A stretch of DNA of 64,000 nucleotides from Escherichia coli (lineage in GTDB: Bacteria > Pseudomonadota > Gammaproteobacteria > Enterobacterales > Enterobacteriaceae): assembly GCF_003334815.1 (NCBI RefSeq), contig NZ_QOWO01000024.1; one strand, written 5' to 3'. How positions within the stretch are numbered: position 1 is the stretch's first letter; each line of letters begins with the position of its first letter. The notes beneath the pieces are model-generated. The model worked only from the letters and a program-made list of their open reading frames with translations. It was not told where the DNA came from and did not search any database. Both the position numbers and the translations under genes were made by a program. Positions 21,571 to 37,865 of the stretch are shown one piece after another.

Positions 21571-25635
<4,065 letters not shown>

Positions 25636-34112: not shown

Positions 34113-37100
34113 ATGCGGATTATCTTTCTACGCAAGGAGTATTTATCTTTACTCCCGTCAATGATTGCATCTCTTTTCTCTGCTAACGGTGTCGCGGCGG
34201 TCACTGATTCATGCCAGGGATATGATGTCAAAGCGAGTTGTCAGGCCAGCAGGCAAAGCCTTTCAGGCATTACGCAGGACTGGAGTATCGCTGATGGGCA
34301 ATGGCTGGTTTTTTCGGATATGACCAATAACGCCAGCGGTGGGGCCGTATTTTTGCAACAAGGAGCGGAATTTTCACTATTACCAGAAAATGAAACTGGA
34401 ATGACTCTGTTTGCCAATAACACCGTTACAGGAGAATATAATAACGGCGGGGCCATATTTGCTAAAGAAAACTCAACGCTGAATCTTACTGATGTTATTT
34501 TTTCCGGTAACGTCGCAGGCGGCTATGGTGGCGCAATCTATTCTTCTGGTACTAACGATACTGGTGCCGTCGATTTACGTGTCACTAACGCCATGTTTCG
34601 CAATAACATCGCTAATGATGGCAAAGGTGGCGCAATTTATACCATTAATAATGACGTTTATTTAAGTGATGTTATTTTTGATAACAACCAGGCATATACA
34701 TCAACAAGTTACAGTGATGGCGATGGCGGGGCAATCGATGTTACCGATAATAATAGCGACAGCAAGCATCCTTCAGGTTATACGATAGTAAATAACACTG
34801 CCTTTACAAATAACACTGCCGAAGGTTATGGCGGGGCGATATATACCAATAGCGTGACGGCTCCCTATCTTATTGATATTTCTGTTGATGACAGCTACAG
34901 CCAGAACGGAGGCGTGTTAGTCGATGAGAACAATAGCGCAGCAGGCTATGGAGATGGTCCTTCCTCTGCGGCGGGTGGCTTTATGTATCTCGGCTTAAGT
35001 GAAGTTACCTTTGATATTGCCGACGGAAAAACGCTGGTTATTGGCAATACAGAGAATGACGGAGCTGTTGACTCTATTGCTGGTACCGGGTTAATCACCA
35101 AAACAGGTTCCGGCGATCTGGTACTTAATGCAGATAACAATGACTTTACTGGTGAGATGCAGATTGAAAACGGTGAAGTTACCCTGGGCCGCAGCAACTC
35201 CCTGATGAATGTCGGCGATACGCATTGCCAGGACGATCCGCAAGACTGCTACGGTCTGACGATAGGGAGTATTGATCAGTATCAGAATCAGGCTGAGCTA
35301 AACGTTGGCTCGACCCAACAAACTTTTGTGCACGCATTGACGGGCTTTCAGAATGGCACTTTAAATATCGATGCTGGTGGCAACGTTACTGTTAATCAGG
35401 GCAGTTTTGCTGGCATCATCGAAGGTGCTGGTCAGCTCACCATTGCGCAAAACGGCAGCTACGTGCTGGCAGGGGCGCAGTCGATGGCGCTAACCGGCGA
35501 TATAGTCGTTGATGATGGTGCGGTGCTTTCGCTGGAAGGCGACGCGGCAGATCTTACCGCTCTCCAGGACGATCCGCAGTCGATCGTGTTAAACGGCGGT
35601 GTGCTCGATCTCTCTGATTTCTCCACCTGGCAGAGCGGCACATCATACAACGATGGCCTTGAAGTCAGTGGCAGCAGCGGAACGGTTATCGGCAGTCAGG
35701 ATGTGGTAGATCTTGCAGGTGGCGACAATTTGCATATCGGCGGCGACGGGAAAGATGGCGTCTACGTGGTGGTCGATGCGAGCGACGGGCAGGTAAGTCT
35801 GGCAAACAATAATAGTTATTTGGGCACAACACAAATCGCCTCCGGTACGCTGATGGTGAGCGACAACTCGCAGCTTGGAGATACCCACTATAACCGCCAG
35901 GTTATCTTTACCGATAAGCAACAAGAAAGCGTGATGGAGATTACCTCCGACGTTGACACGCGTTCAGATGCGGCAGGCCACGGACGTGATATTGAAATGC
36001 GCGCCGACGGTGAAGTGGCAGTTGATGCGGGGGTAGACACGCAGTGGGGCGCACTGATGGCTGACAGCAGCGGGCAGCATCAGGATGAGGGTAGCACATT
36101 GACTAAAACGGGGGCTGGTACACTGGAGCTGACCGCCAGCGGTACAACGCAGTCGGCGGTACGTGTCGAAGAAGGCACCCTGAAAGGTGATGTTGCTGAT
36201 ATCCTTCCTTATGCTTCGTCACTGTGGGTTGGTGATGGGGCAACGTTCGTTACTGGCGCGGATCAGGATATTCAGTCAATTGATGCTATTTCCAGCGGCA
36301 CTATCGACATCAGCGATGGTACGGTTTTGCGCCTGACCGGGCAGGATACTTCCGTCGCCCTTAATGCCTCACTATTTAACGGCGATGGGACGCTGGTGAA
36401 TGCCACCGATGGTGTGACGTTGACAGGTGAGCTTAATACCAACCTTGAAACTGACAGCCTGACTTATCTTTCCAACGTGACGGTTAATGGCAATCTGACC
36501 AATACGTCCGGTGCGGTTAGCCTGCAAAATGGCGTCGCTGGCGATACGCTGACGGTAAACGGTGATTATACCGGCGGCGGTACGCTACTGCTCGATAGCG
36601 AATTAAACGGCGATGACTCGGTAAGCGATCAATTGGTGATGAACGGTAATACTGCTGGCAACACAACTGTGGTGGTTAACTCCATTACAGGGATTGGTGA
36701 GCCGACATCGACAGGCATTAAAGTGGTTGATTTCGCAGCTGATCCCACGCAGTTTCAAAACAATGCGCAGTTCAGTCTGGCAGGCAGCGGCTACGTCAAT
36801 ATGGGAGCGTATGACTACACGCTGGTGGAAGATAACAACGACTGGTATCTGCGATCGCAAGAAGTAACGCCGCCATCGCCACCTGATCCAGACCCGACTC
36901 CCGATCCTGATCCCACGCCGGATCCTGATCCAACACCCGACCCGGAACCTACGCCTGCTTACCAGCCGGTGTTGAATGCCAAAGTTGGCGGTTATCTCAA
37001 TAACCTGCGGGCGGCAAATCAGGCGTTTATGATGGAGCGACGCGATCACGCAGGTGGCGATGGTCAGACGCTGAATTTACGTGTTATCGGCGGAGATTAT

Positions 37101-37865
37101 CATTACACAGCAGCGGGGCAACTGGCTCAACATGAAGACACTTCTACGGTGCAACTTAGCGGCGATCTGTTTAGCGGGCGCTGGGGCACGGATGGCGAGT
37201 GGATGCTTGGGATTGTTGGTGGCTACAGCGATAACCAGGGCGACAGCCGCTCGAATATGACCGGAACTCGCGCCGATAACCAGAACCACGGTTATGCCGT
37301 TGGGCTGACATCAAGCTGGTTTCAGCACGGTAATCAGAAGCAAGGGGCCTGGCTGGATAGCTGGCTGCAATACGCGTGGTTTAGCAATGATGTTTCCGAA
37401 CAAGAAGATGGCACAGATCATTACCACTCGTCGGGGATTATCGCCTCGCTGGAGGCGGGGTATCAGTGGTTACCGGGGCGTGGTGTGGTGATTGAACCGC
37501 AGGCGCAGGTGATTTATCAGGGCGTGCAGCAGGATGATTTTACCGCCGCTAACCGTGCGCGCGTGTCACAATCGCAGGGTGATGATATTCAGACGCGGCT
37601 GGGTTTACACAGCGAATGGCGTACCGCTGTTCATGTCATACCAACATTAGATCTGAATTATTATCACGATCCCCATTCGACGGAAATTGAAGAGGATGGC
37701 AGCACTATCAGTGACGATGCGGTGAAGCAACGGGGTGAAATAAAAGTGGGAGTCACGGGCAATATCAGTCAGCGAGTGTCCCTGCGCGGCAGCGTGGCGT
37801 GGCAGAAAGGGAGTGATGATTTTGCCCAGACGGCAGGGTTTTTGTCGATGACGGTGAAATGGTAA
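34113..37865 (+). CDS. yfaL: Autotransporter adhesin YfaL (EhaC-like): repeat-rich passenger, Pro-rich linker, C-terminal beta-barrel
   Basis: 1250 aa; repeated GGAIY motifs in the passenger, a (PDPDPT)n linker, and a C-terminal translocator ending in an aromatic residue (VKW). Confidence 0.9.
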   Translation: MRIIFLRKEYLSLLPSMIASLFSANGVAAVTDSCQGYDVKASCQASRQSLSGITQDWSIADGQWLVFSDMTNNASGGAVFLQQGAEFSLLPENETGMTLFANNTVTGEYNNGGAIFAKENSTLNLTDVIFSGNVAGGYGGAIYSSGTNDTGAVDLRVTNAMFRNNIANDGKGGAIYTINNDVYLSDVIFDNNQAYTSTSYSDGDGGAIDVTDNNSDSKHPSGYTIVNNTAFTNNTAEGYGGAIYTNSVTAPYLIDISVDDSYSQNGGVLVDENNSAAGYGDGPSSAAGGFMYLGLSEVTFDIADGKTLVIGNTENDGAVDSIAGTGLITKTGSGDLVLNADNNDFTGEMQIENGEVTLGRSNSLMNVGDTHCQDDPQDCYGLTIGSIDQYQNQAELNVGSTQQTFVHALTGFQNGTLNIDAGGNVTVNQGSFAGIIEGAGQLTIAQNGSYVLAGAQSMALTGDIVVDDGAVLSLEGDAADLTALQDDPQSIVLNGGVLDLSDFSTWQSGTSYNDGLEVSGSSGTVIGSQDVVDLAGGDNLHIGGDGKDGVYVVVDASDGQVSLANNNSYLGTTQIASGTLMVSDNSQLGDTHYNRQVIFTDKQQESVMEITSDVDTRSDAAGHGRDIEMRADGEVAVDAGVDTQWGALMADSSGQHQDEGSTLTKTGAGTLELTASGTTQSAVRVEEGTLKGDVADILPYASSLWVGDGATFVTGADQDIQSIDAISSGTIDISDGTVLRLTGQDTSVALNASLFNGDGTLVNATDGVTLTGELNTNLETDSLTYLSNVTVNGNLTNTSGAVSLQNGVAGDTLTVNGDYTGGGTLLLDSELNGDDSVSDQLVMNGNTAGNTTVVVNSITGIGEPTSTGIKVVDFAADPTQFQNNAQFSLAGSGYVNMGAYDYTLVEDNNDWYLRSQEVTPPSPPDPDPTPDPDPTPDPDPTPDPEPTPAYQPVLNAKVGGYLNNLRAANQAFMMERRDHAGGDGQTLNLRVIGGDYHYTAAGQLAQHEDTSTVQLSGDLFSGRWGTDGEWMLGIVGGYSDNQGDSRSNMTGTRADNQNHGYAVGLTSSWFQHGNQKQGAWLDSWLQYAWFSNDVSEQEDGTDHYHSSGIIASLEAGYQWLPGRGVVIEPQAQVIYQGVQQDDFTAANRARVSQSQGDDIQTRLGLHSEWRTAVHVIPTLDLNYYHDPHSTEIEEDGSTISDDAVKQRGEIKVGVTGNISQRVSLRGSVAWQKGSDDFAQTAGFLSMTVKW
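36868..36960 (+). repeat. In-frame tandem 18-bp repeats encoding the (PDPDPT)n linker within yfaL
   Basis: ccgactcccgatcctgat / cccacgccggatcctgat / ccaacacccgacccggaa, translating to PPSPPDPDPTPDPDPTPDPDPTPDPEPTPA. Confidence 0.85.

Follow-up and report, generated by a model that had tools for sequence, protein, structure and literature searches.

In-frame length variation of a proline-rich repeat in the YfaL/EhaC autotransporter of Escherichia coli

A tandem repeat within a coding sequence raises the question of what its expansion and contraction do to the protein: whether they switch it on and off, rapidly reset its length within a clone, or slowly leave behind a set of length alleles that are read in frame. 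This question is posed by yfaL of E. coli, which in the stretch of DNA analysed here (64,000 nt, referred to as the window) carries an 18-nt repeat encoding a proline-rich linker next to the membrane-embedded part of an autotransporter adhesin.

The repeat and its place in YfaL

The repeat lies within an open reading frame of 1250 codons (Table 1), the translation of which reads ...DWYLRSQEVTPPSPPDPDPTPDPDPTPDPDPTPDPEPTPAYQPVL... around it. A 601-nt probe around the repeat found matches in 5420 of 5426 complete E. coli genomes with identities of up to 100%, and all matches listed for this probe carry the RefSeq name yfaL, AIDA-I family autotransporter adhesin YfaL/EhaC. The synteny is likewise that of E. 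coli yfaL, with ubiG and gyrA located downstream in related loci and, in the window, open reading frames of 256 aa on the minus strand and 875 aa on the plus strand after yfaL. YfaL is a known and characterised adhesin, assigned to Group 8 (PMC9289746). Its domain layout is that of a type Va autotransporter, in which a PF03797 barrel follows a pore helix and a PATR passenger ends in AC_1; a Pfam search with residues 151-1250 as query listed three PATR matches in the passenger, two of them with E<=0.001. An antisense open reading frame across the repeat (36603-37049, 148 aa, GTG start) was dismissed as spurious, as its product is an Arg/Ile/Trp-rich low-complexity mirror sequence with no support.

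Table 1. Positions in the window of the yfaL coding sequence, its domains and the repeat elements discussed in the text
Feature	Position	Strand	Basis
yfaL/ehaC coding sequence, 1250 aa, AIDA-I-type (type Va) autotransporter adhesin	34113-37865	+	Open reading frame and translation; RefSeq annotation of matches; Pfam PATR, AC_1 and Autotransporter
Autochaperone domain AC_1, residues 794-904, C-terminal end of the passenger	36492-36824	+	Pfam PF18883, E=2.1e-18; aligns to the AIDA-I 4MEE and IcsA autochaperone structures; confident beta structure in AlphaFold up to WYLRS
TGATCCCACGC, upstream copy of an 11-nt direct repeat (second copy 36908-36918)	36740-36750	+	Translation of L005, ...VVDFAADPTPDPDPTPDPEPTPAYQPVL
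Whole 34-aa proline-rich linker QEVTPPSPP(DPDPTP)3DPEPTPA, residues 916-949, between conserved WYLRS and YQPVL	36858-36959	+	Translation; coil in AlphaFold; without counterpart in the 4MEE alignment
Four 18-nt tandem units, PDPDPT x3 and PDPEPT, residues 924-947	36882-36953	+	TRF; unit-by-unit comparison
Longest exact direct repeat, GATCCTGATCC, 11 nt	36903-36913 and 36921-36931	+	Unit comparison; substrate of the observed +18, -18 and +6 events
Predicted alpha-helix, residues 956-970, the classical autotransporter 'linker' plugging the barrel pore	36978-37022	+	AlphaFold model residues 166-180, pLDDT ~90; aligns to the 4MEE translocator from chain residue 149
Autotransporter beta-barrel domain, residues 989-1228	37077-37796	+	Pfam PF03797, E=2.4e-34; AlphaFold beta-barrel, pLDDT mostly >85

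The first-pass annotation had placed the repeat in yfaL, between the passenger and the beta-barrel. The RefSeq name, the Pfam matches and the AlphaFold model all bear this out, and the position can be narrowed to the interval between the autochaperone domain and the pore helix. The model, covering residues 791-1250, reached a mean pLDDT of 86.9 and a pTM of 0.82, with the linker predicted as coil at a mean pLDDT of 53-56 vs 80-95 for the flanking domains. Such low values only hint at disorder of the linker.

At the DNA level, TRF reported a period-18 array at 36885-36955 (3.9 copies, 75% matches, no indels) together with period-6 and period-36 descriptions. The in-frame units start at 36882, 36900, 36918 and 36936 and read CCTGATCCAGACCCGACT, CCCGATCCTGATCCCACG, CCGGATCCTGATCCAACA and CCCGACCCGGAACCTACG, respectively; in the peptide they are preceded by TPPSPP and followed by PA. 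The best period-18 self-match (40 of 54 positions) exceeds the maximum of 32 obtained among 1000 codon shuffles of the reading frame, and the periodicity is therefore beyond chance. A description of this region as three near-perfect 18-bp units at 36868-36960 thus captured the period, and its range takes in the units with their leader and tail; the array itself is shorter, there are four units, and they are near-perfect only as peptide, with pairwise DNA identities of 12-15 out of 18 (67-83%). When the units are compared by codon position, positions 1 and 2 match in 72 of 72 cases and position 3 in only 7 of 36.

Beneath the 18-nt period runs a 6-nt sub-period of Pro-X dipeptides, so that the array consists of head-to-tail units with lengths that are multiples of 3 (6 and 18 nt), as in a repeat of the VNTR type. 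Proline makes up half of the linker residues and alternates strictly with others (Pro-X), mostly Asp and Thr. A cluster of GATC sites that might have suggested a Dam/SeqA regulatory element is accounted for by the Asp-Pro codon pairs (GAT-CCN), with GAT and GAC swapping freely among alleles.

Length alleles and the events that separate them

Linker lengths were surveyed in samples drawn at even intervals from the BLAST ranking of complete E. coli genomes, each length being read from the span of the match and representatives being fetched and translated. Three such systematic samples provided about 160 rows from 5,420 complete genomes (Table 2), which makes the census a sample and no full count. 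The 34-aa class includes this window, K-12 MG1655, O157:H7 and ST131, and the 28-aa class includes strain W, O104:H4, O111 and O121:H19. As for the rarer lengths, the 22-aa allele occurs in about 22 genomes, the 40-aa allele is known from two records of identical length that probably represent one strain, and a 32-aa allele (L032) was met outside the three samples. Identity bands of the BLAST ranking are unreliable for counting alleles because partial alignments inflate the top band; for the 40-aa allele, 44 records fall at >=99% and only 2 of them are full-length.

Table 2. Linker lengths in three systematic samples of complete E. coli genomes (rows per sample)
Linker	601-nt probe, 40 rows	161-nt probe, 60 rows	28-aa allele probe, 60 rows	Pooled, 160 rows
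34 aa	27	39	38	104 (~65%)
28 aa	8	12	14	34 (~21%)
36 aa	1	4	4 (three from partial matches, one of these by analogy)	9 (~6%)
26 aa	2	2	2	6 (~4%)
22 aa	1	1		2
29 aa		1		1
30 aa			1	1
40 aa		1		1
168-nt deletion	1			1
Unread			1	1

The variation in copy number among strains that the first-pass annotation had anticipated is therefore real and in frame, with linkers of 22, 26, 28, 29, 30, 32, 34, 36 and 40 aa. About one third of the complete genomes differ from the window, so that the finding that would have spoken against it, an identical repeat number in all strains, does not hold. Length differences in a repetitive, GC-rich stretch might still be errors of assembly or sequencing. Short-read assemblies of Shigella sonnei do break at or near the linker, where many partial proteins end or start and one scaffold carries 250 N, and some of the alleles (L014, L021 and L032) are singletons. 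The main classes, however, turn up in many independent complete genomes (~20% of rows for 28 aa; several to tens of records for 26, 36 and 22 aa). Each is an exact multiple of 3 long and shows clean junctions between repeat units, and all are tied to distinct flanking haplotypes, which makes artefact a highly implausible source of the length differences.

The S. sonnei data also deserve a comment of their own. Hundreds of partial proteins had raised the suspicion of an IS element in the linker, an explanation that was discarded since the 250 N of the scaffold correspond to the size of the intact stretch and hence to a gap in coverage or assembly. Since breaks near the linker are frequent in short-read assemblies, copy number is best taken from complete or long-read genomes. 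Taken singly, the alleles L014, L021, L032 and L031 could in principle be assembly errors. The strains that carry the singletons are 35/CFS3246 (40 aa), WP2-S18-ESBL-08 (36 aa), strain 48 (32 aa) and GPEC60-12-649 (7-nt duplication).

The junctions of the alleles are informative as to how they arose. Several differ from the window, or from the K-12-type linker that it represents, by one exact step: L014 has gained an 18-nt duplicate of GATCCTGATCCCACGCCG and L021 a duplicate of GATCCT (+6), while L020 has lost exactly 18 nt and L032 has lost CCTGAT (-6). On another background, the B1-type allele, which keeps DNA-identical 18-nt units (CCCGATCCTGACCCAACA), does vary, in a series of 18-nt steps from 34 aa (L009) through 28 aa (L002) to 22 aa (L004 and L018). 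L022 corresponds to the L001 type minus 18 nt, and alleles shorter by 24 and 15 nt also occur. The first-pass annotation had described units of 18 bp; 18-nt changes do take place, and 6-nt steps are as frequent.

Single-step gaps can be placed at 6-30 equivalent positions; the shorter allele thus has direct repeats of 5-20 nt at the sites of these gaps, a hallmark of slipped-strand mispairing or unequal exchange. L014 and L021 differ from the window by 0-1 SNP in 740-800 nt of flank, which identifies them as recent, de novo events on the window's own allele. The same lengths have also been reached more than once: the 28-aa linker arose on both the K-12-type (L020) and the B1-type (L002) background, and the 36-aa linker at least three times by different insertions (L001/L024, L016/L017 and L021). 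A larger event of the same type is present in NZ_CP178670.1 (L005), in which 168 nt have been lost in frame between the two copies of TGATCCCACGC (36740 and 36908).

Taken from this junction anatomy, the most probable course of events would be that short direct repeats mispair, by strand slippage or an equivalent misalignment, with the gain or loss of 6, 18 or other multiples of 3 nt, and that the new length alleles are then passed down by lineage at a low rate of change. We infer slippage as the molecular event from sequence data. Unequal recombination between sister chromosomes would leave scars identical to those of slippage.

Aside from its junctions, the K-12-type allele attracts attention through its codons. 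Its slippage propensity is low because its units are so degenerate in DNA, and the term slippage-prone that had been applied to it is apt on an evolutionary time scale only, since this allele seldom changes. Synonymous third positions of the four units match in 7 of 33 comparisons. Expected values are 12.8 +/- 3.2 with yfaL's own codon usage (P of as few or fewer, 0.03), 15.3 +/- 3.7 with that of the neighbouring genes (P=0.006) and 10.5 +/- 2.6 with uniform usage (P=0.11), and the use of Pro codons in the linker is almost uniform. One might suppose that the K-12-type allele has been selected against slippage, with scrambled codons stabilising a 34-aa spacer, or that linker length is adaptively tuned; a linked idea is that the length could correspond to how thick the surface polysaccharide of the lineage is. 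Selection or tuning of this kind appears improbable. Codon scrambling as anti-slippage selection was not retained as an explanation, as the third-position deficit was identified post hoc and is marginal with yfaL's own usage and with uniform usage.

Pace of change and constraint on the linker

If the repeat were a contingency locus, it would be hypermutable and would switch YfaL on and off or quickly reset the linker length within a clone. One record points in this direction, namely NZ_CM160084.1 (L031), in which a 7-nt duplication (TGACCCA) lies inside the repeat and yfaL is annotated as frameshifted. Slippage by units of 6 and 18 nt nevertheless keeps the frame, and the remaining indels all have lengths divisible by 3. 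The window's allele is shared within 1 nt over 161 nt by some 1,950 genomes of unrelated host and country of origin, an estimate based on the 1958 records in the >=99% band and on 22 of 60 sampled rows being full-length at >=99.4%. The length classes, moreover, track lineages and sit on diverged haplotypes that differ by 8-90 flank SNPs per 800 nt.

Repeat slippage was also considered as the origin of the frameshifts in yfaL pseudogenes and was rejected; the one such frameshift that was located, in L006, is at position 36557 of the window, in an A-run outside the repeat. Apart from the 7-nt exception there is no frame-switching pattern, and no hypermutability was seen among the complete genomes sampled. 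ON/OFF switching is thereby effectively refuted, and a phase-variable locus of any kind is an exceedingly improbable reading. Taken together, the repeat is very probably an ordinary VNTR-like in-frame polymorphism, which encodes an unstructured, acidic and proline-rich spacer of YfaL/EhaC, is altered in length by slippage at a low rate and does not act as a contingency switch.

With regard to the function of this spacer, its position and composition are suggestive. It would lie at the cell surface, flanked by the autochaperone region that terminates the beta-helical passenger and by the alpha-helix plugging the barrel. Strict Pro-X sequences are unable to adopt regular helical or sheet structure and tend towards extended conformations. 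The spacer most likely serves as an extended, sequence-tolerant tether that keeps the passenger off the barrel and the outer-membrane surface, a role for the YfaL linker that we infer from these features.

A comparison with 14 distant homologues (30-37% identity) points the same way. The WYL(R/T/S)S motif and the (Y/I/V)RPE...Y motif that follows it are conserved, and the Pro-rich linkers between them vary from just a few residues up to roughly 100 aa and are built of unrelated motifs (PDPEPT repeats, DVTPVDPDD repeats, PPxPP and GPGPDP). A Pro-rich segment between the autochaperone and membrane-embedded regions is found in YfaL and in 13 of the 14 homologues. Such variability indicates that the constraint is on composition rather than on sequence or exact length, and the pattern would fit a passive extended tether from passenger to translocator.

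Selection on the linker itself can be approached through eight alleles of equal length (34 aa). Among these the linker is two to three times more diverse than its 125-codon flanks at both synonymous and non-synonymous sites, with amino acid differences per site of 0.12 vs 0.04-0.06, a diversity at codon positions 1 and 2 of 0.077 vs 0.02-0.04, and a third-position diversity of 0.31 vs 0.10-0.12. Raised amino acid and codon 1 and 2 diversity would be in line with diversifying selection on a surface-exposed epitope, whereby linker changes are kept for altered recognition by antibodies or phages, as has been proposed for the repeats of pertactin (PMC3279416). The substitutions cluster at the two ends of the linker (TPPSPP, NPTPPP and TPPLPP at the one; PEPTPA, PAPDPTPA, PIPA and PAPVPV at the other), which would agree with such selection.

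Third positions, however, are equally raised, a pattern in keeping with relaxed constraint, shifts in register or locally elevated mutation rather than with positive selection, and the central PDPDPT peptide is conserved. In addition, 5 of the 26 E. coli complete-genome records retrieved list yfaL as a pseudogene, which speaks against strong selection acting on the protein, and no immunological data were found for the YfaL linker. Diversifying selection is accordingly an unlikely explanation, and the raised diversity of the linker would match relaxed constraint better than positive selection.

Comparison with known systems

The polymorphism of the YfaL linker is a familiar, already-known kind of phenomenon in a known gene, and involves no new mechanism or system. 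No paper devoted to yfaL linker-length polymorphism was found in the literature searched. Its importance is small beyond good annotation, although two uses can be envisaged: natural YfaL/EhaC spacers span 22-40 aa, a tolerance of practical value to those who employ YfaL as a surface-display scaffold, and linker length could be a minor lineage marker.

The contingency loci of Neisseria and Haemophilus consist of homogeneous tracts that lie in promoters or have a unit that is not a multiple of 3, and they switch expression at a high rate. YfaL resembles them in that a repeat in the gene of a surface protein mutates, most probably by strand slippage, and differs from them in its 6- and 18-nt units, which are degenerate, frame-preserving and slow to change. 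A similar composition is found in TonB, whose alternating Pro-X region, (Glu-Pro)n(Lys-Pro)n, is expected to form a polyproline-II-like rod that spans distance and is tolerant of changes in length. TonB is periplasmic and unrelated to YfaL, and the analogy is functional only.

Within the autotransporters, AIDA-I (4MEE) is homologous to YfaL on both sides of the linker (E=8.7e-36; query residues 18-127 and 167-454) and has only about 10 residues where YfaL has its 34-aa Pro-rich repeat, which identifies the repeat as an insertion that is dispensable for the fold. An extra segment at the same architectural place is found in TibA, a self-associating autotransporter of E. coli in which a proline-rich domain (residues 627-677) separates the junction region from the membrane-embedded C-terminal domain (PMC3835316). 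Both proteins thus carry an extra proline-rich segment between the junction or autochaperone region and the membrane-embedded domain; TibA is nonetheless a different protein with a different sequence motif, and YfaL belongs to another adhesin group (Group 8, PMC9289746).

Variation in copy number has its counterpart in pertactin of Bordetella pertussis, strains of which differ in the R1 (GGXXP)n and R2 (PQP)n repeat regions (PMC3279416). Like YfaL, pertactin is a type Va autotransporter with in-frame, proline-containing repeats of strain-variable copy number. Unlike in YfaL, published work ties the variation to antigenic change driven by vaccination; the repeats have other motifs and belong to another organism, and R1 lies within the passenger beside an RGD motif, whereas the YfaL repeat lies beside the translocator. 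The proline-rich domain of TibA and the (PQP)n region of pertactin are the closest analogues of the YfaL spacer.

Lesions within and around the linker of yfaL

The autotransporter adhesin gene yfaL seems to be frequently inactivated: of the 26 E. coli complete-genome records fetched, five (loci L002, L004, L006, L007, and L031) flag it as a pseudogene carrying a frameshift or an internal stop. The lesion in L006 is a 1-nt deletion within an A-run, and that in L031 (NZ_CM160084.1) is a 7-nt duplication, TGACCCA, within a linker repeat of the B1 type (the allele series with DNA-identical 18-nt units), which shifts the frame. Among the genomes inspected, this duplication is the only out-of-frame change in the repeat, and it could be either real or an assembly error.

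An in-frame loss of 168 nt between two TGATCCCACGC copies was found in another genome, L005 (NZ_CP178670.1), where it takes out the last ~40 residues upstream of the conserved WYLRS together with the first half of the linker. The gene is still annotated by RefSeq as an intact CDS, and the deletion probably damages the end of the autochaperone domain.

Partial YfaL sequences in Shigella sonnei drafts

In the short-read drafts of S. sonnei (L025-L030), many "partial" YfaL proteins break off or start at or near the linker, as exemplified by P0025, which terminates in ...PDPDPTPDP, and by the P0012 cluster (303 sequences), which starts with APTPAYQPVL. Insertion of an IS element at this position was weighed against a gap in coverage or assembly, and the latter is favored because one scaffold carries 250 N across the linker region, the size of the intact stretch.

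Sequence features of the repeat and a distant homologue

The yfaL repeat contains five Dam sites in 47 nt, the densest cluster among the 300 GATC sites of the 64-kb window, as a consequence of its Asp-Pro codon pairs (GAT-CCN), which also generate two overlapping GGATCC (BamHI) sites. GAT and GAC interchange freely among other yfaL linker alleles. A smaller second cluster, with four sites in 50 nt (tgatcacatg...gtgatccatgatcagcagcgatcc), lies elsewhere in the window. An antisense ORF overlapping the repeat was considered as a gene and found to be without support; its translation mirrors the Pro/Asp repeat and is rich in Arg, Ile, and Trp.

Window coordinates of the features described
Feature	Position	Strand	Detail
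GATC cluster in yfaL repeat	36885-36930		GATC at 36885, 36903, 36909, 36921, 36927
Second GATC cluster	24901-24950		
Antisense ORF	36603-37049	minus	148 codons, GTG start
L005 deletion, with both flanking TGATCCCACGC copies	36740-36918		
L006 1-nt deletion	36557		

A near-identical peptide repeat, longer than that of YfaL and at the same position (PDPEPTPDPDPTPDPEPTPDPDPTPDPGPTPDPDPTPEPDPTPAPAP), is present in P0078, a metagenome autotransporter protein of 429 aa sharing 31% (BLAST) or 36% (MAFFT alignment) identity with YfaL. The occurrence of the PDPxPT motif in both proteins suggests either convergence or long retention.
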